DNA of 32,000 nucleotides from Candidatus Methanoperedens sp. (GTDB lineage: Archaea; Halobacteriota; Methanosarcinia; Methanosarcinales; Methanoperedenaceae), in the NCBI GenBank assembly GCA_041494705.1, contig JBGQBI010000001.1, positions 360,001 to 392,000 on the forward strand, read 5' to 3'. Each line of letters opens with the position of its first letter. Within the stretch, counting starts at the first letter, position 1. A program made the translations under genes and the position numbers. The notes under the pieces were generated by a model. That model worked only from the letters and a program-made list of their open reading frames with translations, was not told the origin of the DNA and searched no databases. Below, piece after piece: positions 6,243-24,963 of this stretch.

Positions 6243-6557
6243 ATGACAAGTAATGTAGTACAGGTAAGAATGCCATCTGTAATACTAAAGAATGTCGAAG
6301 ACCTCGTTAAAAAAGGCTTTTACAAAAACAAGAGCGAAGTAATCATTGATGCCGTGCGTCATTTCGTGGGCATAAGGCAAACAGAGAGCGACGTAGCGCA
6401 GTACATAAGGGAAGAACTGCGGGGGAAGCATGTAAAGCGCGGTTACTCAGAAAAAGAACTCGATGCCTTATGGGAGAAAATCAGGCGCGGAAAAGAGTGG
6501 AAGGAGCGTTTCGGAATAAGCGCTGAAAGCGTCATGAAAGAACTCAGGGGAAGATAA
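6243..6557 (+). CDS. Ribbon-helix-helix (CopG/Arc/MetJ-like) antitoxin
   Basis: The N-terminus VQVRMPSVILKNVEDLVKKGFYKNKSEVIIDAVRHF follows the strand-helix-helix pattern. The stop overlaps the start of the downstream PIN gene by 1 nt. Confidence 0.7.
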   Translation: MTSNVVQVRMPSVILKNVEDLVKKGFYKNKSEVIIDAVRHFVGIRQTESDVAQYIREELRGKHVKRGYSEKELDALWEKIRRGKEWKERFGISAESVMKELRGR

Positions 6558-7036
6558 TGATTTTCATCGATACGGATATTTTTGTGATTGAGAAGCTTTT
6601 TAAAGACGATGATAGATACAGCATCGCAAAAGAGTTTTTAAATGGTGATTTAAAGGATAAATGCACCTCAATCTACAATTTGTTTGAGCTTCTCGGCATT
6701 GCTTCTTTTAATCTGAATACATCCGATTTGAAAAAATTGCTTAAAGGATTCCCTGAAGTATATGACATAAAAATACTATTTCCCTCCACAGCATACGAAT
6801 CCACGGATGCCTTTGTAGAGCAGTTATTCGATAAAACATTTTCAAAAATTAGCCTGAAAATGAATTTTATGGATGCTCTGATACTGAATGTGGCTGAGGA
6901 GCATAATTGTTCCAAATTTGTGACATATAATGTGAAACATTTTGAAGGGCGGACAGATATCCCTGTAATGACTCCTGACGGGATATTAACCAGGAAAAAG
7001 ACGGAAGCTGATAAACAGGAAACTCATCATCATTAA
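6557..7036 (+). CDS. vapC: PIN-domain (VapC-like) ribonuclease toxin
   Basis: IFIDTDIF supplies the first acidic residue, LFELLG the conserved E, and MDALILNVAEE...TYNVKHF the distal acidic residues. Size is 159 aa and it is coupled to an upstream RHH gene. Confidence 0.7.
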   Translation: MIFIDTDIFVIEKLFKDDDRYSIAKEFLNGDLKDKCTSIYNLFELLGIASFNLNTSDLKKLLKGFPEVYDIKILFPSTAYESTDAFVEQLFDKTFSKISLKMNFMDALILNVAEEHNCSKFVTYNVKHFEGRTDIPVMTPDGILTRKKTEADKQETHHH

Positions 7037-7199: not shown

Positions 7200-9290
7200 A
7201 TGAATGTTTACTCCCCGGAAAGAGGGATTGATTTGCCTTTAGACCATACCGATTTAAAAGAATTGAAAAAACGCGGGGATATTGAGGGGCTGCTGGGTAT
7301 CCTTGATACCGGCGACGTTAAGGAGTGCAGGGATGCGATATGCATTCTGGGCGAGCTTCGGAACAAGAAAGCTATCCGCCCCTTGATCATATTACTTGAG
7401 ACCGATGATGTCCAGATTCGCGCAAATGCAGCATGGGCTCTTGGCGAAATCGGGAATGTAAAGTCCGTGCTTCCACTGATCGCCCTTTTAAATGACCCGA
7501 GTGATAATGTTCGGATACATGCGGCATGGTCGCTTGGAAGGATAGGTGACAAACGGGCTGTTCCCGGGCTTATGGCTGTTTTAAAAAACGGTTCCACAGA
7601 TTTGAGAAAGCATGCAAGGGAAGCAATAGAGAGAATAGAATCGAACGGGAATGGCAACAGGTATGCTTATGAAAATGATGAGACCGATTTTTCTGAAAAA
7701 CGGGTTGATATCCCGCTCGTAACACTGGATATCCCATCTGATTTATTTAAATGCGAGTATTTATCACGCGTGGAAAACGGGGAAACAAAAACCGATTATG
7801 GCAATACAATCCAGTTCTCAAACGATTTGATGATAACGGATACGGAGGATTCAAACGGAACCGGTGAAAATACAAGAAAGATCGTTCTGGGCCTGAAAAA
7901 TGAATTTAATGGATTGGTTTCAGTCGATATTATTTTAAAATATAATGAAAACAATGGCTCTGACACGCAGACGAATTCGATATGGCTGCAAATGGAAAAT
8001 TTGAGAAAAAATAATCCAGCCGGCAGAAGTGCACCCGCAGGAGAACAGGAATGGGAGAAGGAGGAACAAACAGGAGCAATCAAAAGGAGAACACCGGGCA
8101 ATGGCGCAAAAAAAGTTCAATTAAAACCTTTGAGGAAACACAGACCTGCCGGATATGACCTGTCAGGCGAAGTGGCCGAAGATGAGACCAGGGCAGGAGA
8201 ATTGCCTTCTTTTGATTATGATTTTGATTACCCTGAAGAGAATACTGCAAAGAAAAAAGAAATTGTGAGACTTGAAAAGAGGTCTCATAAAAAGCCTGAA
8301 TCTGAGGAACCTGAATTAGAACCGGAAGCTGTTTCTATTAAAGAGAGCGTCAAATCCGAGAAAATAATACATGAGCCTGAAGTAAAGGCGAAAGTTGCCA
8401 GGCCGGAAACCGAACAGGTTAAAGAATCCGTCAAACCCGAGAAAAAATCACCTGAACCGGAAATTAAAGCGAAAGTTGCCAAACCCGAAATAGAAATGGT
8501 TAAAGAAACTATTAAACCTGAGAAAAAATTACCTGAACCTGAAGTAAAAGCCAGAGTCACTGAACCAGAAGTTAAAACCACTGTCATAAAACCGGAAGTT
8601 GAAGCCACAGAGACCGTTAAACCCATGAAAGCAGAACCTCATGCCCCACATGCAAAACCAGAGCCTGCCGCACCACTCAAAAAAGACCAGAATATCGATT
8701 CGGCTGTCAGGCTTTTAAGCGATATAGGGATGTCGGGAATGACAAACGCAGCGTCGACTGTCACCCAGTTATCTGGAGAGGAAGCCGAATCCAGCCATTC
8801 CCAGCTGCGCACCCTCCCGATTGAACAGATGCACGATGAAATAATCAGCCTTGGCGATTCGATAGTAATGATTGGAATCGAACTTCATGGAAAGGGCCCA
8901 ACCGGTGAAGTGAGAGGAGAGATGCAGTTGTATATATCAAGTGAAAATGCTCTGGATATCGCAAACGAACTTCTCTGCAATCCTCCGGACGCTGCATGCA
9001 AGGAGTTCACCGAGGATATAATTTCCACGTTAAAGGAAACAGCAAATATCTTTGGCGGGCAGTATATCAGCGCGGTATCTGAATATATCGAAGTTCCCTT
9101 ATTGCTTAAAGCCCCGACCTTCAAGACCGGCTCATCTTCAAAGATTGCAGAAGCCGCTATGAAAGAGATTGCCGGAAAAGTCGAATTCGCGCTTGCAACC
9201 AACCTGGCCCTGGGAATAAATAAAACCGGGAGGTTGATTATGCTGGTTGACCCGAAGTCGTTTGATATTATAATACAGAAACTGTTCTAA
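7200..9290 (+). CDS. HEAT_PBS-repeat protein fused through a long low-complexity linker to a CheC/CheX-like (CheY-P phosphatase family) domain
   Basis: The N-terminus has repeated ..AAWALGEIGNVKSVLPLIALLNDPSDNVRIHAAWSLGRIGDKRAVPGLMAVL.. units (PBS-lyase HEAT). The C-terminal ~190 aa contain S-TLK-E-TA-N-(22 aa)-P at nt 9024-9116, an exact match to the CheC-family consensus D/S-X3-E-X2-N-X22-P. I took the first ATG (7200) rather than the TTG at 7146. Confidence 0.75.
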   Translation: MNVYSPERGIDLPLDHTDLKELKKRGDIEGLLGILDTGDVKECRDAICILGELRNKKAIRPLIILLETDDVQIRANAAWALGEIGNVKSVLPLIALLNDPSDNVRIHAAWSLGRIGDKRAVPGLMAVLKNGSTDLRKHAREAIERIESNGNGNRYAYENDETDFSEKRVDIPLVTLDIPSDLFKCEYLSRVENGETKTDYGNTIQFSNDLMITDTEDSNGTGENTRKIVLGLKNEFNGLVSVDIILKYNENNGSDTQTNSIWLQMENLRKNNPAGRSAPAGEQEWEKEEQTGAIKRRTPGNGAKKVQLKPLRKHRPAGYDLSGEVAEDETRAGELPSFDYDFDYPEENTAKKKEIVRLEKRSHKKPESEEPELEPEAVSIKESVKSEKIIHEPEVKAKVARPETEQVKESVKPEKKSPEPEIKAKVAKPEIEMVKETIKPEKKLPEPEVKARVTEPEVKTTVIKPEVEATETVKPMKAEPHAPHAKPEPAAPLKKDQNIDSAVRLLSDIGMSGMTNAASTVTQLSGEEAESSHSQLRTLPIEQMHDEIISLGDSIVMIGIELHGKGPTGEVRGEMQLYISSENALDIANELLCNPPDAACKEFTEDIISTLKETANIFGGQYISAVSEYIEVPLLLKAPTFKTGSSSKIAEAAMKEIAGKVEFALATNLALGINKTGRLIMLVDPKSFDIIIQKLF
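8343..8585 (+). repeat. Three diverged in-frame tandem copies of an 81-nt (27-aa) unit inside the HEAT-CheC linker
   Basis: Units are at 8343-8423, 8424-8504 and 8505-8585. They encode ESVKSEKIIHEPEVKAKVARPETEQVK / ESVKPEKKSPEPEIKAKVAKPEIEMVK / ETIKPEKKLPEPEVKARVTEPEVKTTV. Confidence 0.85.
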
Positions 9291-9294
9291 ACAA

Positions 9295-10383
9295 TTAAGA
9301 AATATATACTTCGGTGCTGCGGACTACTTTTTCTACATCCCTTTCAAGCTTTGACAGCATTGTTTTATCAAGCTTCTTTCCTTTTAGCTGCTCAATGAAC
9401 ATAAGCGATTTCGTATGGTCATCCGGGAGGAGTTTCCATGTGGGACGTTCCACGTAATAATCTATCCCGTTCGCATAGGCTATCATTTTTTCGCAGACTT
9501 CCTCGCTTATCCATCCTATGTCAATATAATATTCAAGGACTTCTGTGAGGTTATTCCTTCCCACCTTTTCAAGTAAAAATTCTATCCAGTTAAGAAGTAT
9601 AATCGACGTTTCAGCTTTATTATCCAGATATTGCAGTTTTACATCCCCACCGGCTCTTGTTGCAGGAACTGCGCTCTCAACCTGTTCATGTATCCGGGAT
9701 GACGGCTCCGTAACCATGACTGGTTGCAGGGATTTTTGATCGATTAAGAGTTTAATCTCTTCCAATACCCGTTCGGAAACATTTTTTACCAGGACATCCT
9801 GATTCAATGCTGTTGAATTAATCACTTCGGTCAATGCCTGCAAACTGCCCTCGAGAGCTTTAAATTTAATATCATATTCTTCTTTTATATTCGGGGGAAG
9901 TTCCGGCGCTTTCTGGCTTAAGGCATCGATTTTTTTCTCCATCTGTTCGAGCTTTTCATTCGGGACATTTTCCTTGTCGCCAACAAACGGGTTTACAGTG
10001 CTGGATACCACTTCATATAATGATAATAATTCAAGAAGGCTTTCATCTATTTTATCCAATCTTTCTTTAAATTCATCCACCCGGTTTTTTGTCGCTGAGA
10101 CAGAACTCTCCACTTTGCTTATCTTTGTATCATACTCCTTGATGGATTCGGTCGTGGCGCTGATTTGTTCGGTTTTGGATTTCACTATCTCTTCAATCTT
10201 CTGGGTAATTTCTTCCTGCGCTTTTTTAACCTGTTCGGACAAATCAGGCATTGCTATTGATGGCGTACCTCCGGCTATTGGTACTCCTGCGCCGGGAGTC
10301 TTTTTTATCCTTTCGATTTTTTTAATAAGGGACTCTTCCGGCATCTTTAATTTTTTAAACTTTTCTGAAATATCCTCAAACAT
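9295..10383 (-). CDS. arlCDE: Archaellum accessory protein, ArlC (FlaC) - ArlD/E (FlaD/E) fusion
   Basis: A coiled-coil N-terminal half ends in LLELLSLYEVVSSTVNPF, the FlaC signature (..lYE.vs..iNPF). The C-terminal LLNWIEFLLEKVGRNNLTEVLEYYIDIGWISEEVCEKMIAYANGI matches the FlaD/FlaE domain signature. Confidence 0.8.
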   Translation of the reverse strand: MFEDISEKFKKLKMPEESLIKKIERIKKTPGAGVPIAGGTPSIAMPDLSEQVKKAQEEITQKIEEIVKSKTEQISATTESIKEYDTKISKVESSVSATKNRVDEFKERLDKIDESLLELLSLYEVVSSTVNPFVGDKENVPNEKLEQMEKKIDALSQKAPELPPNIKEEYDIKFKALEGSLQALTEVINSTALNQDVLVKNVSERVLEEIKLLIDQKSLQPVMVTEPSSRIHEQVESAVPATRAGGDVKLQYLDNKAETSIILLNWIEFLLEKVGRNNLTEVLEYYIDIGWISEEVCEKMIAYANGIDYYVERPTWKLLPDDHTKSLMFIEQLKGKKLDKTMLSKLERDVEKVVRSTEVYIS

Positions 10384-10517: not shown

Positions 10518-10548
10518 CATCAATGATACTTCATTGCAGAGGTCGTTT

Positions 10549-11304
10549 ATGAGAGTAAAAACAGGAATAGAAGGTTTAGATGAACTGATCGAAGGAGGTT
10601 TACCCAAGGATAGGCAGTACTTGATTAGCGGCTCCCCGGGCAGTGGGAAATCTACATTCGGAGTGCAATTTTTGGCTGGCGGGGCGCTTGCCGGGGAAGC
10701 CGGTGCATACGTTGTATTATCCGAAAGCGTAGATACTATTATCGAAGACATGTCCCGGTACAATCTGCACATCGAAGAACTGGTCAACAAGAAAAAACTG
10801 TTTTTTTTAGATCTCGGGCCGACGACCCAATACGGGGAATACGAAGAAGTTTCTTCGTTGATAACGCCAAATTATGAGCAGCGTGAAGCCGAATCTCCCG
10901 ATAACACTCCCCCCACGCCATATTCAGTGTTCAAGAATGTTGAGGCAGTGGTAAAGCAGCACAATATCAAGAGACTGGTAATAGACTCATTATCTGCCAT
11001 CAGGTTCACTTCATCGCAGGCGGCGCAGGAAGAGAAATCCATAAGCAGGTTCATCAGGAATCTTAAAACCCTTGGATGCACCACTTTACTTTTATCCGAA
11101 CTTACCAAGCCTGATGCTTATACCATTGAACAGTTCGCATCCCACGGCGTGATATTTCTCCATAATTTCCTGGATAACCAGAAAGGAATGGTGAGAGCGT
11201 TGCAGATAATTAAGATGCGGGGAACAAAACACGACTGTGAAATGCGCTGTATCGAATTCACGAATAAGGGCTTAATTGTCCAGAAACCGCTGAAAAAATA
11301 TTAA
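10549..11304 (+). CDS. Single-domain KaiC-like RecA-superfamily ATPase (possible ArlH/FlaH-type)
   Basis: TGIEGLDELIEGGLPKDRQYLISGSPGSGKSTFGVQFL gives the KaiC-type N-terminus with Walker A. KRLVIDSLSAI is Walker B-like. Size is about 250 aa and it is divergent from arlCDE. I chose the ATG at 10549 over the TTG at 10534. Confidence 0.75.
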   Translation: MRVKTGIEGLDELIEGGLPKDRQYLISGSPGSGKSTFGVQFLAGGALAGEAGAYVVLSESVDTIIEDMSRYNLHIEELVNKKKLFFLDLGPTTQYGEYEEVSSLITPNYEQREAESPDNTPPTPYSVFKNVEAVVKQHNIKRLVIDSLSAIRFTSSQAAQEEKSISRFIRNLKTLGCTTLLLSELTKPDAYTIEQFASHGVIFLHNFLDNQKGMVRALQIIKMRGTKHDCEMRCIEFTNKGLIVQKPLKKY

Positions 11305-11416
11305 GGGGTTTTGAGCTATTACAGGTAAACAGGCTGATAAGGAGCGGCTCATAAAAAAAATTTCCGAGCTGGGATTTGAAGTCGGATACAAGAATCACTC
11401 AGAAATTGGCTGGGTA

Positions 11417-11746
11417 TTGAGAGAATATAATGCCCTTATTAAAGAAGCCCTGGATCTTGGGATTAAATCGCCTGAAACTTATTATTATGAAGGAAAAATA
11501 AAAGGAAAAGCGGGCAGGGACAGGGGGATAGTGGGGCATAAAGTCCAGGAAGAAAAAGAGGAGATAGTTTCGGGCAATGTACCGGCCAAGGATAATGAGG
11601 ATGCAATCAAAACAAAAAAAGAAACCAAATCATATAAGTTACTTAAAAAACCCGATTTTAACTGTATTCCTCATCTGGTTAAAAAAATCAGCATGATAGA
11701 ATTCCCGCAATTTCTCGGGGGATTCAAGCTTTTCAACAGGAAATAG
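11417..11746 (+). CDS. Hypothetical K/E-rich small protein with uncertain start
   Basis: The open frame runs from 11315 with no ATG or GTG before the TTG at 11417. I recognised no domain and the C-terminal half is low-complexity. It may be spurious or may use an unusual start. Confidence 0.3.
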   Translation: MREYNALIKEALDLGIKSPETYYYEGKIKGKAGRDRGIVGHKVQEEKEEIVSGNVPAKDNEDAIKTKKETKSYKLLKKPDFNCIPHLVKKISMIEFPQFLGGFKLFNRK

Positions 11747-11778: not shown

Positions 11779-11887
11779 AAGAGATTTTCATCTTGCCAAT
11801 TACGGTGAAAAAGCAGTTTTGCTGCTTATGAACAATAGAGAAAGTCCGAAAAACGAAAATGTATTAAAATGGAAAACGGAGGATTTT

Positions 11888-14062
11888 ATGGTAAGTATTA
11901 AAGATATGTCTCTAAGCAAGAAGCTTCTGGGCGGATTCGGCCTTGTCAGCATCTTGCTTATAATAGTGGCTGTGATAAGCATCACTTCCCTCAGTTCCCT
12001 TGACAGCGAGACAAAATCGTTGTTGGGAAATGAAGTAACATTGAAAGAAAAAGCTCTTAATATAGATGTAAAAATGCTTGAGGCAAGACGCTCCGAGAAA
12101 GACTTCCTGATGCGGCTTGATCCGAGCTATGTTGATCTGGTGACAAAAGCTACTGCCGAAGTCAAGCAAAATGCGACAGACATAAAGAAGCTTGATGTCC
12201 CGCAGGAAAGAAAGGATATGGCAGATAAAATAGTGCTGTTGATTAATCAATATGAAACCAAGTTCCTGGAGGTCGTCCAGCTCTATAAGACAAAAGGACT
12301 GGATGAGAATTCAGGGCTACAGGGTGAACTCAGGACTGCGGTGCATGGCGTTGAAGATGACATTAATAAACAGAAGGATAGCGTGCTCCTGGCAGATATG
12401 CTGCAATTGAGAAGGAATGAGAAGGATTACATGTTGCGGGGAGACATTGTGTATCAGAAGACATTACACGATAACGAAAAGATACTCATGAAGGACCTTG
12501 CAGCAAGCAAGATGCCGCAGAATGTTAAAGATGATATTAATAACAAGCTTAAAACCTATACCGCATCGTTTGATAAGTTGGTGGATGTAGACGGCCAGAT
12601 TACAACCAAAATAAATGAATACAGGGATGTTGTCCACCAGATTGAGCCGCTTGTCGCTGAATTTTCTGCCGATGCCGATACGGATAAAGCAGCAAAAATC
12701 GCCGAAAGCGATAAGATGAATTCAACGGCTAAAGCATCTGTAATAATAATATCTATTATAGCAGTGGTAACAGGTCTCGGTATCGGGGTATATATCTCCC
12801 GGGCAATCACCAAACCTGTGGACAGCATGCTCCAGGCATCCAATAAAGTCGCAGCTGGCGACCTTACAGTCCAGCTCACAAATGATTCAAAGGATGAGGT
12901 CGGGCAGCTTTCCATGGCCATATCGACCATGACCGAGAGCTTAAGAGGCGTTCTTTCCAAAGTCCAGGGCTCGGCACTGAGAGTAGCCTCAACAGCCCAG
13001 GAACTCTCAGCATCAAGCGAAGAGATGAAAGCCTCCACCGACCAGATATCCAGCACCACGCAGGATATTGCTTCCGGAGTGAGCCAGCAGGCATCGAAGA
13101 TGGTGGAAATAACGAGGACAGTAAAAGAGATGGCAGACAGCGTACAGCAGGTTGCAGTAAATTCCCAGAAAGCAGCAGAAAGCGCTACTTCAGCCAGCAA
13201 TACCGCCCAGGAAGTGGGCAAGATGTCCAATGATGTGGCGAGCAAAATATCGGAAATCAGGACGACCGTGGATAACTCAGCGTCTGTAATAAAAGAGCTT
13301 GACGGCAGGTCGCAAAAGATTGGTGAAATAATAGGTGTGATAACAAATATTGCAGACCAGACAAACCTCCTTGCATTGAACGCAGCTATCGAAGCTGCAA
13401 GAGCAGGAGAGCACGGCAGGGGTTTTGCTGTAGTCGCTGATGAAGTCAGGAAGCTTGCCGAGGAATCAAGAAATGCCGCAAACCAGATAACTTCACTGAT
13501 AAAAGAAGTCCAGCTGGGAACAAAACAGGCAGTTGATAGCATGGAACAGGGCACCAGGACCGTAGGCGAGGGTGCCAAGACAATCGAGGATGCAGTATCT
13601 GCTATCAATAAGATTGTCACCGCTGCCGGGGAAGTCGCCACCATGGTTCAGGAAATCGCGGCAGCGGCGCAGGAACAGTCTGCCTCGGTTGAAGAGGTTG
13701 CTGCTTCGGTTGAAGATGTATCTGCAATAAGTGAAGAATCCGCTTCAGGCACAGAGGAAGTTTCGGCAGCAGCAGAAGAGCAGGCTGCTTCAATGGACCA
13801 GATGGTGAACGCCGCCCAGGAACTTGCTAAACTGTCAAACGAACTACAGGCAGAAGTTTCGAAATTCAATCTGGGAGAGGCGGTATCCCGGGTCTTTAAA
13901 CAGGCAGAACAAATTAAGCATGAACCTGTAAAGCAGAAAGAGGCAGCGGCGAAGCAAGTGCATACAGAGACGCATGACCAGAAATCCGGAACCAGACAAA
14001 ATGATTCAATGAAAACAGGGAAAAAGACGGTATCTCATGCAGATGAAACAAAGCCGGAATAG
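11888..14062 (+). CDS. Methyl-accepting chemotaxis protein with a large helical extracellular sensor domain, HAMP and signalling domain
   Basis: Start is the ATG at 11888, preceded by GGAGG. TM1 is [22 protein letters not shown]. The ~280-aa ectodomain has two RR(S/N)EKD(F/Y)(L/M)(M/L)R modules. TM2 is [21 protein letters not shown], followed by HAMP. The conserved hairpin tip is [38 protein letters not shown]. Confidence 0.9.
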
Positions 14063-14071
14063 GAGATAAAA

Positions 14072-14599
14072 ATGGCAGAGAAAACTCAAGACCCAAAGGC
14101 ACAACCATCAGCGAACGACGAGCTCCAGCTCGTCGTTTTCATGATAGGCAGCGAAGAATTCGGTGTTGAGATAACCAACGTGCAGGAGATTATCCGCATG
14201 ACCAGCATCACCAGGATTCCCCAGGCGCCGAATTACGTCAGGGGAATAATCAACCTCAGGGGCCGGATTATAGTTGTGCTCAACCTGAATGTGATAATGG
14301 GCATGGAAAGCAAAGAGCAGGACGAGAATACGCGCATTGTGGTTGCGAACATCGGCGAGACTGTGATGGGTTTCATTGTTGACTCCGTAAGTGAAGTCAT
14401 CCGCCTCCCCCAGAAGAACGTTGAGCCTGCACCGGCTGTTATCGCTAACAAGATAGGCACGGAATATGTCCGGGGAGTTGGCAAGATGGATAACAGGCTT
14501 CTGATTCTCCTTGATCTTGATAAGTTACTCAGCGCAAACGAACTGCACAGTGTTCACACTATTTCCCAAGAAGCCGCAGAGGCAGCAGTAACAACCTGA
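14072..14599 (+). CDS. cheW: Chemotaxis coupling protein CheW
   Basis: 175 aa. LQLVVFMIGSEEFGVEITNVQEIIRMTSITRIPQAPNYVRGIINLRGRIIVVLNL is a canonical CheW core. It starts 9 nt after the MCP stop. Confidence 0.9.
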   Translation: MAEKTQDPKAQPSANDELQLVVFMIGSEEFGVEITNVQEIIRMTSITRIPQAPNYVRGIINLRGRIIVVLNLNVIMGMESKEQDENTRIVVANIGETVMGFIVDSVSEVIRLPQKNVEPAPAVIANKIGTEYVRGVGKMDNRLLILLDLDKLLSANELHSVHTISQEAAEAAVTT

Positions 14600-14710: not shown

Positions 14711-16243
14711 ATGGGATTAATAGATATTATAGATAAAGCAAATGAATTGACAATCGGCAGGTTCAATATTGGTATTAAAATCGCTTATAGTTTCATCGTG
14801 GTTGATGCGCTGATGCTAATTATAGCATATATGGGTTTATACGGTGACAGTGTCAGCGCTTTTATTGACCCTAAACAGGCAATCATCCTTGTTATTTTTT
14901 TCGTAATATTTTCATCCATACTAATGTGTCTCGGATTGACCCGTTCTATCATGAAGCCGCTGAATAGTTTTATCAATGCCGCTGACAGGATAGCTGAGGG
15001 GGATTTGACAACAGAAGTGGATGTCTCGTCAAAGGACGAACTCGGACAGCTTGCAGCATATTTCCAGAAAATGACCGGAAATCTGCGGCATTTAACAGGC
15101 AAAGTCCAGGACGTCTCATTAAGAGTTGCGAATACAGCCCAGGAACTATCGGCATCAAGCGAGGAAATGAAAGCTTCATCAGACCAGATATCAAGCACAA
15201 CGCAGGATATTTCCAATGGGGTGAGCCAGCAGGCTTCCAAGATGGCTGAAGTAAGCCGCGCCATGAAAGAGATGGCTGAGAGCGTCCAGCAGGTTGCTCA
15301 AAACTCCCAGAAAGCGGCCGAAGGCGCGACATCTGCCAGCGCAACCGCCCAGCAGGTGGGCAGAATGTCAGGCGATGTGGCGCAAAAGATGGCAGAAATC
15401 CAGGGAAGTGTGGATAATTCAGCGACAGTTATAAAACAGCTTGACGGCAAATCACAGCAAATAGGCGAAATTATCAGCGTGATAACCACTATCGCAGACC
15501 AGACAAACCTTCTTGCCCTGAACGCTGCCATAGAAGCCGCAAGAGCAGGAGAGCACGGCAGGGGTTTTGCGGTAGTTGCAGATGAAGTGCGCAAACTTGC
15601 CGAGGAATCAAGAAATGCCGCGAACCAGATTACCTTGTTGATAAAAGAGATACAGCAGGGCACAAAGCAGGCTGTAACGACAATGGAACTGGGCACAAAA
15701 ACTGTTGGTGAAGGCGCCAGGACCATAGAATCCACGGTATCGGCAATCAACCAGATAGTAAAGGCGGCAGAAGATGTGGCTACGATGATCCAGGAAATAG
15801 CTGCAGCCGCGGAAGAACAGTCAGCATCGGTTGAAGAGGTAACAGCTTCGGTTGAGGACGTTTCATCAATAAGCCAGGAATCGGCTGCAGGCACACAGGA
15901 AACATCAGCGGCGGCACAAGAGCAGGCAGCGTCAATGGACATGCTTGTGAATGCAGCCCAGGAACTTGCAAGATTATCAAGCGAGTTACAGGTTGAAGTG
16001 GGTAAGTTCAAACTCGGCGATGCTGTAACAACAGATTTAAAACAGGTTCATGAACCGGTAAGGATTGAGCAAAAACCTGAGATTGAACACCGGACCGGAA
16101 AGGAAGCGGAACATAAAGCTATTCATGAAAAAATTAAGAAACACAAGCCAGCGGAAAAAGGTAAGGCTGCAAAGAAGGATGAAAAAGCCAGGGCTAAGAA
16201 CAGTTCCTCAGGTTCAAACCCTGATGAAGACATGACAAAATAG
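14711..16243 (+). CDS. Methyl-accepting chemotaxis protein (transducer) with two TM helices and almost no extracellular loop
   Basis: TM1 [23 protein letters not shown], a ~12-aa loop, and TM2 [21 protein letters not shown] are followed by HAMP. The signalling domain is near-identical to MCP1 ([38 protein letters not shown]). Confidence 0.9.
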
Positions 16244-16250
16244 GAACGCC

Positions 16251-16772
16251 ATGGCAGAAAAACAACCACGGGACGCAAAAACCAAATCGGGCGATGAACT
16301 CCAGCTTGTCGTCTTTAACATAGGCAAAGAAGAGTTCGGCGTGGAGATTATGAGAGTCCAGGAAATCATCCGCATGACCAGTATCACGGGAATTCCCCAG
16401 GCTCCGGCTTATATCAGGGGAATAATCAACCTTCGCGGACGGATTATTGTTGTGCTCAACCTGAATGTGATAATGGGCATGGAAACAAAAGAACTGGACG
16501 AGAATACCCGTATAATAGTGGCAAATATAGATGAAACCGTAATGGGATTCATTGTTGATTCCGTGAGCGAGGTTATCCGGCTTCCTGAAAATAATGTAGA
16601 GCCGGCGCCGGCAGTTATCGCAAGCAAGATAGGCACTGAATATGTGCGGGGCGTTGGCAAGATGGAGGACAGGCTTTTGATTCTCCTTGATCTTGACAAG
16701 ATGCTTGGCAGAAACCAGTTGCTCAGCGTCCAAAAAATATCAACACAGGCGTCAGGCGTTGAGGCTGCATAA
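16251..16772 (+). CDS. cheW: Chemotaxis coupling protein CheW (second copy)
   Basis: 173 aa. By hand count about 125 of 146 aligned residues are identical to the first CheW. Confidence 0.9.
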   Translation: MAEKQPRDAKTKSGDELQLVVFNIGKEEFGVEIMRVQEIIRMTSITGIPQAPAYIRGIINLRGRIIVVLNLNVIMGMETKELDENTRIIVANIDETVMGFIVDSVSEVIRLPENNVEPAPAVIASKIGTEYVRGVGKMEDRLLILLDLDKMLGRNQLLSVQKISTQASGVEAA

Positions 16773-16792: not shown

Positions 16793-17197
16793 TTATTTTT
16801 CCTTTTTCATATCCAGCGCATCGTTCGATAATGTATCAGTACGGGCATTATCTTCCCTGTTAATCCATTTAAAATCTATTTCCTTAAAATTGCTGCAAAG
16901 TTTTTTTGCCTCGTTGAAAAGCGGTATGAGTTTGTCGCTTTTCACCCTGTATTGTCCGGAAATCTGTTTTATTACAAGCTGGCTGTCCCCGCGCACTTCA
17001 AGTTCCTTGCATTCATGCGCAATTGCAAGTTTTAATCCCTCTACCAGCGCGCTCCATTCTGCGATGTTGTTTGTCCCGGTACCAAGGCGTTTTGAGAGTT
17101 CACCAAGTTTTTTTCCATTTTTCATTAATACAACTCCGATAGCCATTGGTCCGGGATTCCCCCTGCATGCTCCGTCAAAGAATAATATGCAACTCAT
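16793..17197 (-). CDS. rnhA: Ribonuclease HI (type 1 RNase H)
   Basis: 134 aa. FFDGACRGNPGP, NNIAEWSAL, VRGDSQLV and NREDNARTD supply the D-E-D-D catalytic pattern of RNase H1. Confidence 0.8.
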   Translation of the reverse strand: MSCILFFDGACRGNPGPMAIGVVLMKNGKKLGELSKRLGTGTNNIAEWSALVEGLKLAIAHECKELEVRGDSQLVIKQISGQYRVKSDKLIPLFNEAKKLCSNFKEIDFKWINREDNARTDTLSNDALDMKKEK

Positions 17198-17235: not shown

Positions 17236-17967
17236 TTAAAGCTCTCCTTTTTTCTCTTTTACCTTCTGCACAAGTTCAAAAATCTCCTCTGCTCTTTCGC
17301 CAATAACGCACAGGGTTATGGAACCTTCACCGCCTTCCACGCCTCCTGCTCCTATCGGGAAAACATCCTCTGCGCCCAGAAGTGTTAGCGCTTCCACTTC
17401 GGTAACGACTTTGCCCACAAGCGGCGCCATCCCAACAGGAAGACCCGTTGCTTTAATGCAGCGCTGGATTCCGATTCTTTTTGAAATCTCAATTATCGAA
17501 TATGGAATGGATTTTTCAAGACCCACCGGGATTACAAGATTAATGCCTTTTGCCATGACTGGTCCTGTTATGTTTCCCGTGGTGCCGCCCATAGGATTTG
17601 CCAGCATCACACCTGCTATGCCGTCAGGGTCGATGGCGTTTGCCCCTTTTATGACCACGTCCTGGGATGTCATTTCATTGATTATGTTCTCGGCGCTCAC
17701 TTCCCTACCGTTTTTCAAAGCAATCATGGGCAGTCGTTTTTCCTGCGGCACGACTGCAGCCGTCCCGTCAATGTAACCTGCTGCGTATCTTAAATGGTCA
17801 ATTTTCCTGCCCGTAAGCTCTTCGGCCACATACGCATTGGTGGTGCCGAGGGTTATCAGGATTATTCCCTTTTCCAGCGCCTGCCGGACAACCGGGAGTT
17901 TTTTTACTCCCATGGCAATAATTCTTTTTGATTCACGGGGCGTGAGTGTTACCTGTATCTGTTTCAT
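17236..17967 (-). CDS. Conserved hypothetical protein
   Basis: 243-aa soluble protein with good coding character. The pattern VVIKGANAIDPDGIAGVMLANPMGGTTG loosely recalls the eIF2B/MtnA/LUD (NagB-like fold) signature. I recognised no firm family. Confidence 0.5.
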   Translation of the reverse strand: MKQIQVTLTPRESKRIIAMGVKKLPVVRQALEKGIILITLGTTNAYVAEELTGRKIDHLRYAAGYIDGTAAVVPQEKRLPMIALKNGREVSAENIINEMTSQDVVIKGANAIDPDGIAGVMLANPMGGTTGNITGPVMAKGINLVIPVGLEKSIPYSIIEISKRIGIQRCIKATGLPVGMAPLVGKVVTEVEALTLLGAEDVFPIGAGGVEGGEGSITLCVIGERAEEIFELVQKVKEKKGEL

Positions 17968-18055
17968 AATTCATCACTTTTTGTTCTCAAACGAAATAAT
18001 GTTATTCATGTTATATAGCTAGAGAACTAATTTTTCAAACATATTATTGTGAATA

Positions 18056-18121
18056 CTTTGCGTACTTAGCGCCTTTGCGGTGCGTGTTTTTATTCACCGC
18101 TAAGACGCAAAGGTCGCAAAG
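18056..18121. repeat. REP/BIME-like imperfect palindromic element, copy 1
   Basis: 27-nt arms are ctttgcgtacttagcgcctttgcggtg (18056-18082) and caccgctaagacgcaaaggtcgcaaag (18095-18121). They are complementary at 22/27 positions with a 12-nt loop. The same arm sequences recur at 30486-30557. Confidence 0.8.
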
Positions 18122-18164
18122 ATAGTATTAATTGTTTAGTTTTTAACTATAAATAGCTGGTTGG

Positions 18165-18794
18165 TTACCTGTAGCCGTACTCCCTTTTTGCTTTCATCAA
18201 ATCCCCTATCTTCGTAGAGGTCAAAAGTTCAAAGACAATAAGCAATATGAAAAGATAAAAGAGATTCACCGATGCTGCATTTTCACCATTGTAAACGGCT
18301 ATGAAAGCCACAATCACGGGCGCCGCGATAGTCCCAATAACGCCTGATAAGTGCATGAGCGCCCTTCCCAATGCCTTTGCTTTCAGGTATGAGGAGTAAT
18401 CTATTCTGAGCGTTGGCTCAACCCGCGCCGGGCCATTGAGATAATAATGCGTGAACCTGATGCCGGATAAGGCGCCTGTGATATAATGTGAAAGCGGGTG
18501 AAGCGTGGCCATCAAAATAATGGCGCTAGCATACAACATCCAGTTTGAGGTTGCCTGGAATGCCAGGATTATGGCTGCAATTGTGACAATCGTCTCCAAC
18601 AGGTTCCCAAGAGGGACCTTCAGCGTGAAAGACACCTTTTCCCCAAATCTCTTCCTGCTTGTTTTTTCTATAAGCCCGAGCAGCTCGTCATCATTTACCT
18701 TATCTTTTTTCACCTGATTGACGATTGCCAGGAAATTTTTCCCATTGTAACTCGTTTCAATATTTTTAAGTTCAGCTTTTAATTCGTCGTGCAT
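18165..18794 (-). CDS. Hypothetical membrane protein (about 4 TM helices, soluble N-terminus)
   Basis: 209-aa ORF with hydrophobic segments such as IVTIAAIILAFQ, MLYASAIILMATL, GVIGTIAAPVIVAFIAV and LFYLFILLIVFELL. Its start lies 3 nt from the upstream gene's stop. Confidence 0.55.
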   Translation of the reverse strand: MHDELKAELKNIETSYNGKNFLAIVNQVKKDKVNDDELLGLIEKTSRKRFGEKVSFTLKVPLGNLLETIVTIAAIILAFQATSNWMLYASAIILMATLHPLSHYITGALSGIRFTHYYLNGPARVEPTLRIDYSSYLKAKALGRALMHLSGVIGTIAAPVIVAFIAVYNGENAASVNLFYLFILLIVFELLTSTKIGDLMKAKREYGYR

Positions 18795-18796
18795 AG

Positions 18797-19219
18797 TTAC
18801 CCCTTGACCGTAATAATAATTTCATTACCCTCTATGACTGTATTATTATAAACCAGTTCAGCCTTCGCCTGATATTTTATCTCCGTCCCTGCCGCAAGTG
18901 TTGCTCTTATTTCCACTATCCTGAATCCGGAATCCTCACCCGGGCGCAGAGCGCCTAAATCGTAACTTTCAGGGGTAAAATTCACATAATGGCTATCGCT
19001 TGAGTTCACGCTAAACCGGGCAACAGGATGTATAGTGGATTTCCCGTTATTGGTAACTCTAATCATGACCTCGCCGGTTTCACCGTTCTTGATGGCCACT
19101 TCGGAAGGCTTGAGCTCAAAGACCGTATCTTTAGTTTTAAAAGCATTTTCAGACAAACACCCGGCAAAAAGTATTGAAACAATCAGTCCGGCGACAATTG
19201 CAATGTGCTTAAATGCCAT
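18797..19219 (-). CDS. Hypothetical secreted or lipid-anchored protein with a beta-sandwich (CARDB/NEW3-like) pattern
   Basis: The signal peptide has a lipobox-like motif (IVAGLIVSILFAGC). The body alternates beta-type segments (GEVMIRVTNNGKSTIHPV...LRPGEDSGFRIVEIRATLAAG). Confidence 0.55.
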   Translation of the reverse strand: MAFKHIAIVAGLIVSILFAGCLSENAFKTKDTVFELKPSEVAIKNGETGEVMIRVTNNGKSTIHPVARFSVNSSDSHYVNFTPESYDLGALRPGEDSGFRIVEIRATLAAGTEIKYQAKAELVYNNTVIEGNEIIITVKG

Positions 19220-24785: not shown

Positions 24786-24857
24786 AGCCCCGGGAGGGAA
24801 TTGAACCCTCGACCTCGTCCTTACCAAGGACGCGCTATACCTCTAAGCCACCGAGGC
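24786..24857 (-). tRNA. tRNA-Thr (anticodon GGU)
   Basis: Hand-folded from the minus-strand sequence GCCTCGGTGGCTTAGAGGTATAGCGCGTCCTTGGTAAGGACGAGGTCGAGGGTTCAATTCCCTCCCGGGGCT. The acceptor stem is GCCTCGG/CCGGGGC, the anticodon stem CGTCC/GGACG with loop TTGGTAA, and the T arm GAGGG-TTCAATT-CCCTC. CCA is not encoded and there is no intron. Confidence 0.85.
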
Positions 24858-24888
24858 GCTATTGATTTTTGCCAGGATATATTTTAAG

Positions 24889-24963
24889 CGGGCCCGGAGG
24901 GATTCGAACCCTCGACATCCGGGTTAGAAGCCCGGCGCTATATCCAAGCTAAGCCACGAGCCC
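24889..24963 (-). tRNA. tRNA-Arg (anticodon UCU)
   Basis: Hand-folded from the minus-strand sequence GGGCTCGTGGCTTAGCTTGGATATAGCGCCGGGCTTCTAACCCGGATGTCGAGGGTTCGAATCCCTCCGGGCCCG. The acceptor stem is GGGCTCG/CGGGCCC, the anticodon stem CCGGG/CCCGG with loop CTTCTAA, and the T arm GAGGG-TTCGAAT-CCCTC. CCA is not encoded. Confidence 0.85.

Follow-up and report, generated by a model that had tools for sequence, protein, structure and literature searches.

We examined a 32,000-nucleotide stretch of DNA (hereafter, the window) from Candidatus Methanoperedens sp., an ANME-2d archaeon that oxidizes methane, located at positions 360,001 to 392,000 of the forward strand of contig JBGQBI010000001.1 (GenBank assembly GCA_041494705.1). 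Our subject is a gene on the forward strand of the window (7200..9290) whose product joins PBS-type HEAT repeats, a beta-rich domain, a disordered linker and a domain resembling the chemotaxis phosphatase CheC; we refer to it as HEAT-CheC. The gene order around it is fpoO, a pair of genes encoding a ribbon-helix-helix (RHH) antitoxin and a PIN toxin, HEAT-CheC, the archaellum switch gene arlCDE in convergent orientation, a gene for a KaiC-like ATPase, a gene of about 144 codons, and then genes for a methyl-accepting chemotaxis protein (MCP), CheW, a second MCP and a second CheW. HEAT-CheC thus sits in a motility and chemotaxis island that comprises ArlCDE, the KaiC-like ATPase, two MCPs and two CheWs. 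Its open reading frame (ORF) is a single frame that starts at TTG 7146 or ATG 7200 and closes at 9290 with a TAA codon (9288-9290). Counted from the ATG at 7200, as are all residue numbers below, it encodes 696 amino acids and a stop, and the product is 100% identical to a Methanoperedens database protein (P0014).

The ORF list and an AlphaFold model of the full-length chain delimit four parts: a HEAT repeat domain (aa 19-148), a beta-rich domain (aa ~169-266), a linker (aa 267-496) and a CheC-fold domain (aa 497-696). An earlier interpretation of the window, made from its letters without database searches (the sequence-only reading), had recognized the HEAT N-terminus and the CheC-like C-terminus, both of which stand, but it had taken the whole middle of the protein, some 360 residues, for low complexity. 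In doing so it missed the conserved beta-rich domain; only aa ~267-496 are a disordered linker.

The HEAT domain (7254..7643, forward strand) exceeds the Pfam gathering thresholds of both HEAT_2 (8e-20; 71.3 bits against a cut-off of 27.7) and HEAT_PBS (PF03130; 7e-16; 57.3 bits against 20.9), which upholds its earlier assignment to the PBS type. In the full-length model it folds into nine helices forming an alpha-solenoid with a predicted local distance difference test (pLDDT) score of ~94, and Foldseek matches it to alphaRep and to PBS-HEAT designs at ~38% identity and a root-mean-square deviation of 1-2 Å, and also to CpcE. The beta-rich middle domain (7704..7997, forward strand) was delimited by conservation and by the model, in which it has seven strands at a pLDDT of 50-60; among 74 relatives R226 and W262 are invariant and many further columns nearly so. 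This domain has no Pfam match in the window protein, while the same region of a divergent member of the family (P0139) gives a weak match to CARDB (E 0.019). In a Foldseek search with the full-length model the HEAT and CheC matches dominate and leave the middle domain without a family; it is possibly an immunoglobulin (Ig)- or CARDB-like sandwich. The linker that follows (7998..8687, forward strand) comprises ~230 residues rich in E, P and K, and is modeled without secondary structure at a pLDDT of 30-45. Across the family its composition is 17% E, 13% P and 13% K, its length in orthologues ranges from 13 to 293 aa (median 216), and identity to the window protein averages 38%. Tandem Repeats Finder places repeats within it at 8338..8610 on the forward strand, 81-nt (27-aa) units first (period 81, 2.6 copies) and 27-nt units after them (period 27, 2.9 copies).

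The C-terminal domain (8688..9287, forward strand) was assigned from NCBIfam, phmmer, structural modeling and Foldseek. Its sequence similarity to CheC is significant but weak: the NCBIfam model CheC_Thtogales is matched over its whole length by aa 502-695 (3.4e-11), with 43 bits against a cut-off of 250, and phmmer aligns the domain with Thermotoga maritima CheC (1xkr/2f9z) at 6e-6. Some orthologues do bear precomputed matches to PF13690 and PF04509. An AlphaFold model of the domain, made from 12 sequences, has a pLDDT of ~90 over aa 537-696 and lower values in helix 1. The best PDB matches reported by Foldseek are, in order, a CheC-like protein of Haloarcula marismortui (3qta, 2e-10), T. maritima CheC (1xkr/2f9z; for 1xkr 4e-10 and a template modeling (TM) score of 0.67), FliY (4hyn, 2e-7), CheX (3hzh; TMq for CheX 0.46-0.49) and the middle domain of FliM; the matches to 3qta, 1xkr, 2f9z, 4hyn and 3hzh all have a probability of 1.00 and TM scores of about 0.5-0.67. 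Because the best structural matches of the AlphaFold model are CheC, FliY and CheX, we consider its predicted fold, of the CheC type with two pseudo-repeats, to be settled. The earlier statement that the last ~190 residues look like CheC, CheX or FliY is confirmed by NCBIfam, phmmer and Foldseek, and the structural comparison that the sequence-only reading had proposed as a check ranks CheC first, with FliY and CheX in its company. The Pfam searches it had proposed alongside gave a divided answer, with HEAT_PBS and HEAT_2 above their cut-offs, CheX below its own and CheC without a match. With a mean identity of 76% to the window protein, the CheC-like domain ranks with the most strongly conserved regions of the chain.

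The second pseudo-repeat of this domain carries an intact active-site motif, S609-x3-E613-x2-N616-x22-P639 (9024..9116, forward strand), identified by a regular-expression match, by alignment and in the model. Written out as S-TLK-E-TA-N-x22-P at aa 609-639, it matches the CheC-family pattern D/S-x3-E-x2-N-x22-P; shuffling produces such a match by chance in 0.3% of cases for the C-terminal domain and in 2.7% for the whole protein. The phmmer alignment pairs E613 and N616 with T. maritima CheC residues 112 and 115, reportedly its second active site (Park et al. 2004). The full-length model places both residues on a helix (605-630) and P639 directly ahead of a strand (640-645). Not one of the 102 aligned C-terminal domains or of the 74 full-length relatives departs from S609, E613, N616 or P639, with overall identity falling as low as 29-50%. 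The exact motif noted at 9024-9116 from the letters alone holds up, with E613 and N616 on the active-site helix and all four residues invariant in relatives.

The first pseudo-repeat differs. The alignment shows a degenerate site at aa 504-511, R-x3-D508-x2-M511 (8709..8732, forward strand), where D508 pairs with E13 of T. maritima CheC and M511 with N16. Of the 102 aligned sequences, 79 have D and 21 have N at position 508, and 93 have M at position 511. Since the glutamate position is occupied by D or N and the asparagine position by M, the first active site is predicted to be dead throughout the family, leaving a single intact one. The loss of one site had been noticed before; its coordinates need correction, LLSDIGMSGMTNAAS being encoded at 8712-8756 rather than 8703-8756.

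We examined the reality and the distribution of the fusion in several searches. A search with the C-terminal domain initially gave only short proteins of 121-282 aa, which might be taken for stand-alone CheC-like proteins. On the contigs that encode them a HEAT gene lies immediately upstream, and the two halves are frame-shifted or parted by one stop. These contigs belong to long-read ENA assemblies (L001, L002 and L003; ERZ25039554 / ERZ25039513) in which the fpo genes are broken too. We rejected the short proteins as the native form: on these error-prone long-read contigs one and the same fused gene has been broken in two, and the short proteins are artefacts or pseudogenes. A search with the full-length protein retrieved ~90 cluster representatives at 45-92% identity with 97-100% of the query covered, and the close relatives are all named Candidatus Methanoperedens. 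We also scanned one genome per species with peptide patterns specific to the family, a procedure that distant HEAT-CheC fusions could escape. This gave 27 loci, assigned to Methanoperedens or Methanoperedenaceae with one exception, a 1.5-kb contig in a 'Flavobacteriales bacterium' bin (CAJPFH010000076.1) that holds a piece of a Methanoperedens HEAT-CheC gene. That contig is almost certainly mis-binned, its accession series CAJPFH adjoining CAJPFJ of the Methanoperedens metagenome-assembled genome METP1. In all 25 species-level genomes with upstream DNA, every one from Methanoperedenaceae, the frame from HEAT to CheC is open. Because of these 25 open frames and the ~90 full-length representatives, we conclude that the fusion is real and under selection.

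An exhaustive search of protein representatives with the CheC-like domain returned 15 matches at E<1e-30, nearly all of them long proteins with the domain at the C-terminus. The scores then drop from 176 to 82 bits, below which ordinary CheCs of ~200 aa follow (e.g. from Spirochaetota and Bacillales), and the CheC-like domain forms a clade of its own. HEAT repeats were found only in the close clade among the long matches examined; CheW-CheC, CBS-CheC and tandem CheC proteins are among the distant matches.

The nearest neighbor of HEAT-CheC in the window is a fused ArlC-ArlD/E gene (9295..10383, reverse strand), which encodes the archaellum switch or 'C-ring' protein (Pfam FlaC_arch 5.7e-13, Arch_fla_DE 7.2e-26). 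The two genes converge with their stops 4 nt apart, just as the sequence-only reading had stated. Divergent from arlCDE is the gene for a KaiC-like ATPase of the RecA superfamily (10534..11304, forward strand; Pfam KaiC ATPase 3.5e-49), which by its score is not an ArlH orthologue (NCBIfam ArlH 45 bits against a cut-off of 215) and which is kept with arlCDE across Methanoperedens. The conserved protein of ~144 aa comes next (11315..11746, forward strand); it has orthologues in three related loci (L004, L005 and L007) and no Pfam match. Its gene always follows the KaiC-like gene in the arlCDE cluster, and the protein carries the motif ELGFEVGxKNHSEIGWVLREY. At the place where the orthologue in L007 reads ATG, the window reads ATT, and translation from TTG 11417, the earliest canonical start codon, would cost the protein its conserved N-terminus. 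Translation may begin at the non-canonical ATT, the ATT may be an error, or the gene may be decaying. The chemotaxis genes that follow, all on the forward strand, encode an MCP (11819-14062), a CheW (14072-14599), a second MCP (14711-16243) and a second CheW (16251-16772), with Pfam MCPsignal and HAMP matches in both MCPs and CheW matches in both CheWs.

The core of this arrangement, consisting of HEAT-CheC, convergent arlCDE, the KaiC-like gene, the 144-aa gene and CheW/MCP genes, recurs in relatives at ~50-55% overall identity, and in one of them (L004) the island extends to a response regulator and archaellin genes. At species level arlCDE lies convergent downstream in 15 of ~22 informative loci, and it adjoins HEAT-CheC at 4-24 nt in the clade of the window and in the M. 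nitroreducens clade. Six other loci (L018, L020, L021, L026, L029 and L035) have an intact HEAT-CheC and no arlCDE/KaiC-like/CheW cluster within a downstream flank of 3.5-10 kb. DUF439 (CheF) was found neither among the window ORFs scanned with Pfam nor in related loci.

On the other side of HEAT-CheC lie fpoL, fpoM, fpoN and fpoO of the F420H2 dehydrogenase. Between fpoO and HEAT-CheC, at 6243-7036, the RHH antitoxin (104 aa) and PIN toxin (159 aa) genes overlap by 1 nt; the pair looks like a strain-specific insertion, related genomes having ~120-180 nt of intergenic DNA at that place. Further downstream in the window, three consecutive ORFs of 243, 209 and 140 aa (17236-19219, reverse strand) have no significant Pfam match; the 140-aa ORF shows a weak CARDB/Ig-like match (E 0.02), and the trio is placed between an RNase H-like gene (16793-17197) and birA. 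The sole Rfam or ARAGORN matches in the window are tRNA-Thr(GGT) and tRNA-Arg(TCT) at 24786-24963 (reverse strand).

A second kind of fusion involves the same CheC-like domain. P0137 is a protein of 628 aa encoded at 867-2768 of a 4.3-kb metagenomic contig (L008; JAXAXH0104402249.1, GCA_036705545.1). It consists of FlaC_arch and Arch_fla_DE, then a linker rich in K, E and P, and then the CheC-like domain of the HEAT-CheC clade (252 bits) with S-x3-E-x2-N kept. Upstream of its gene, in the same orientation, lie cheW and a small ORF. The two halves of P0137 are similarly diverged from the corresponding window proteins (39% and 50%), and because they are about equally diverged a chimeric assembly is disfavored. 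As evidence for a link between the CheC-like domain and the archaellum switch, P0137 is suggestive only.

A HEAT_PBS protein, OE2401F, has been studied in Halobacterium salinarum; archaellar switching depends on it, and it binds to both CheD and CheF1 (PMC2666748). The sequence-only reading had attributed to such a protein contacts with CheY, CheD, CheC2 and FlaCE/FlaD, of which the contact with CheD is correct; OE2401F itself bound CheD and OE2402F, while the contacts with CheY, CheC2 and FlaCE/FlaD belong to two DUF439 proteins (Schlesner 2009, PMC2666748). Proteins of the OE2401F type have no other domain, always adjoin a DUF439/cheF gene and occur in che regions only of haloarchaea (PMC2666748). 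Repeat proteins are also known to defeat orthologue searches (Schlesner 2009, PMC2666748). CheF, which is located on the ArlCDE ring, binds CheY-P, the phosphorylated form of CheY (PMC9126983), and CheC2 of H. salinarum binds both CheF1 and CheF2, suggesting that dephosphorylation takes place at the switch (PMC10117864).

Taken together, we lean, by a modest measure, towards HEAT-CheC being a single-site CheY-P phosphatase of the CheC family that is specific to Methanoperedenaceae and tethered near the archaellum switch, as an analogue of FliY. The analysis establishes the domain architecture, the fold, the invariance of the catalytic residues, the conservation of the fusion throughout the family and the gene neighborhood; phosphatase activity, the CheY-P substrate and the docking partner are inferred. 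The HEAT and beta modules would dock the protein on a partner in motility or chemotaxis, most likely the switch ring of ArlCDE or one of the proteins attached to it, and the flexible tether of ~230 aa would let the catalytic domain sweep the neighborhood. CheY-P that reaches the switch (ArlCDE with CheF) would then be dephosphorylated locally, which would end the reversal signal. Catalysis would be carried out by the second pseudo-repeat, through E613 and N616 on helix 605-630, in a domain that combines the topology of CheC with a single site as in CheX. FliY is known to dephosphorylate CheY-P at the flagellar switch of Bacillus and Thermotoga. A bolder version of this proposal, which we hold to be possible but doubtful, makes HEAT-CheC a fixed component of the archaellar switch complex, the archaeal counterpart of FliY, joining the roles of OE2401F and CheC2 in one chain.

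Several observations weigh against this proposal. Pfam CheX, the best Pfam match of the C-terminal domain, scores 23.5 bits in the window protein, under the cut-off of 27, and Pfam CheC gives no match to it. The helix of the degenerate first site is conserved as much as the active helix (87% and 88% mean identity, respectively), and the domain may have a second, non-catalytic binding role. The likeness of the HEAT region to OE2401F appears to be at the level of the repeat family only, HEAT_PBS repeats being generic binders. Within the 32 kb of the window there is no cheY, cheA, cheF or cheD. P0137, used as a query, matched no ArlCDE-CheC fusion besides itself, and cheW on its contig is frameshifted. 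As to gene order, 0.9-5.4 kb are inserted between HEAT-CheC and arlCDE in four of the 15 arlCDE loci, the available flank lacks arlCDE in 6-8 loci, among them BLZ2 (L020) and METP1 (L018), and fpoO lies upstream in ~14 loci, about as frequently as arlCDE is adjacent. The fpoO adjacency is presumably non-functional, and the synteny with arlCDE may reflect shared descent within one genus and not selection; because the two adjacencies are about equally frequent, gene order cannot separate functional coupling from shared descent. The sequence-only reading had called HEAT-CheC a Rosetta-stone fusion that physically links CheY-P dephosphorylation to the switch proteins. In its favor, the arlCDE neighbor recurs and P0137 exists, but since the synteny is lost in 6-8 loci and is no better kept than the adjacency of fpoO, the physical coupling is something we infer rather than observe.

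Two other readings of the protein were considered. The CheC-like domain could be a non-catalytic binding module, comparable to the middle domain of FliM or to CheC in its capacity as a CheD regulator, in which case the protein would be a structural adaptor or a switch component that binds CheY-P or CheD and dephosphorylates nothing. The middle domain of FliM shares the fold and is among the structural matches, the conservation of the degenerate first helix suggests a binding surface, the curated models of CheC and CheX give low scores, OE2401F binds CheD, and CheC and CheD of T. maritima join in a complex (PDB 2f9z). Yet without catalysis it would be difficult to account for S, E, N and P being invariant in 102 of 102 relatives, the E/N pair is not known from FliM, and the best structural matches are phosphatases rather than FliM; we regard a purely binding role as unlikely. 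The protein could also be a CheY-P phosphatase that is aimed elsewhere, at the receptor array (MCP/CheW), at CheD or at the KaiC-like ATPase, the adjacency of arlCDE being an inherited order. Such a target would agree with the MCP and CheW genes of the same island, with the CheW-CheC fusions, which show that array targeting of CheC domains is possible, with an arlCDE adjacency that is lost or interrupted in many loci and no stronger than that of fpoO, and with OE2401F having bound CheD and CheF1 and not Fla proteins directly. Against it, P0137 points at the switch, and arlCDE is the immediate neighbor (4-24 nt) in the clades of the window and of M. nitroreducens, so that we give this reading about as little credit as the previous one.

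Two further readings concern the architecture itself. If the fusion were an artefact or a decaying gene, read through from separate HEAT and cheC genes owing to a sequencing error or to the recent loss of a stop codon, the stand-alone proteins of 198-282 aa would be the true form, and the first search with the C-terminal domain, which returned only short proteins (121-282 aa), could be understood in that way. The short proteins, however, are frame-broken halves behind a HEAT gene on error-prone contigs, and the open frames in 25 of 25 species-level genomes together with ~90 full-length representatives make an artefact highly improbable; we rejected it. The HEAT_PBS region might be an enzyme resembling bilin lyases of the CpcE, CpcF or NblB type and no scaffold, given NCBIfam matches to CpcE (5e-14) and NblB (1e-9) and a Foldseek match to CpcE 5n3u. 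These scores are far under the curated cut-offs (e.g. 52 bits against 330) and the matched stretches are no more than generic repeats. Structurally, the HEAT part comes closest to alphaRep proteins, which are binders designed from consensus HEAT-like repeats, and these archaea are not known to have phycobiliproteins. We rejected the bilin-lyase reading as well, on account of those scores, and give it hardly any weight. A tethered phosphatase of the CheC family acting near the switch remains the reading that we prefer.

The family has been annotated unevenly. In JGI the name 'CheY-P-specific phosphatase CheC' is used, with a single 'CheC/HEAT repeat protein', NCBI names most members just 'HEAT repeat domain-containing protein', and many members bear precomputed HEAT and CheX Pfam matches. 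We found no paper on a HEAT-CheC fusion in the literature searched, which covers few subscription journals. The sequence-only reading had supposed the architecture to be undescribed; that agrees with the literature searched, but the architecture is not rare, with ~90 representatives that are in part automatically annotated. What appears to be new is a HEAT-based targeting module on a predicted phosphatase of the CheC family, restricted to Methanoperedenaceae as far as tested. The annotation can be corrected in that proteins labeled as HEAT also bear a CheC-like domain, and motility surveys of the genomes of Methanoperedens, an environmentally important methane oxidizer, may be counting the HEAT-CheC fusion as cheC. 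It is understood only in part how bacterial-type chemotaxis connects with an unrelated motor, that of archaea; CheF and ArlCDE are known to be involved. The fusion and P0137 give a testable hypothesis, namely that HEAT_PBS modules place the phosphatase at the switch, and they open a testable way to learn what the HEAT_PBS protein essential in haloarchaea does and where CheY-P is dephosphorylated. If the bolder version were true, HEAT_PBS proteins would serve generally as adaptors, keeping phosphatases of the CheC type, and perhaps CheD too, in place at the ArlCDE/CheF switch, which would explain why deletion of OE2401F abolishes switching, a question open since 2009.

Comparison with known systems shows which features of HEAT-CheC are shared and which are its own. 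OE2401F is similar in having HEAT_PBS repeats and in being encoded among che and archaellum genes; it adjoins cheF, whereas HEAT-CheC has no cheF nearby. CheC of T. maritima (1xkr/2f9z) and the CheC-like protein of H. marismortui (3qta) resemble the C-terminal domain in their alpha/beta fold with two pseudo-repeats, in their size of ~200 aa (TM 0.6-0.67) and in the second-site motif S/D-x3-E-x2-N-x22-P with identical spacing. Unlike CheC, which has two active sites, HEAT-CheC has one, the first being apparently dead (D/N508, M511). In HEAT-CheC, moreover, the domain stands at the C-terminus of a multi-domain chain of 696 aa, is just 17-20% identical to CheC, falls under the thresholds of the curated hidden Markov models and belongs to a clade of its own. 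Partnership with CheD, which binds and activates it, is typical of CheC proper; the window carries no cheD. CheX of Borrelia burgdorferi (3hzh) and T. maritima (1xko) is alike in that its sole functional site lies in the second repeat. The CheX chains in the matched structures have ~150 aa, whereas the domain of HEAT-CheC has ~200 aa with both repeat helices, and the structural match to CheX is weaker than that to CheC (TMq 0.46-0.49 against 0.67). CheW-CheC, CBS-CheC and tandem CheC proteins also join a CheC-like domain to a localization or sensor module, but with other partner domains and without HEAT repeats or a long disordered linker. The closest functional analogy is FliY of Bacillus and Thermotoga (4hyn), a precedent for a tethered CheC domain, which likewise carries a domain of the CheC fold inside a larger protein. 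FliY contains a FliN domain, belongs to the bacterial C-ring and has two active sites; in the window protein no FliN/SpoA domain was matched and the CheC-like domain is itself C-terminal, preceded by HEAT_PBS repeats and a beta domain, and the motor that it would serve is the unrelated archaellum.

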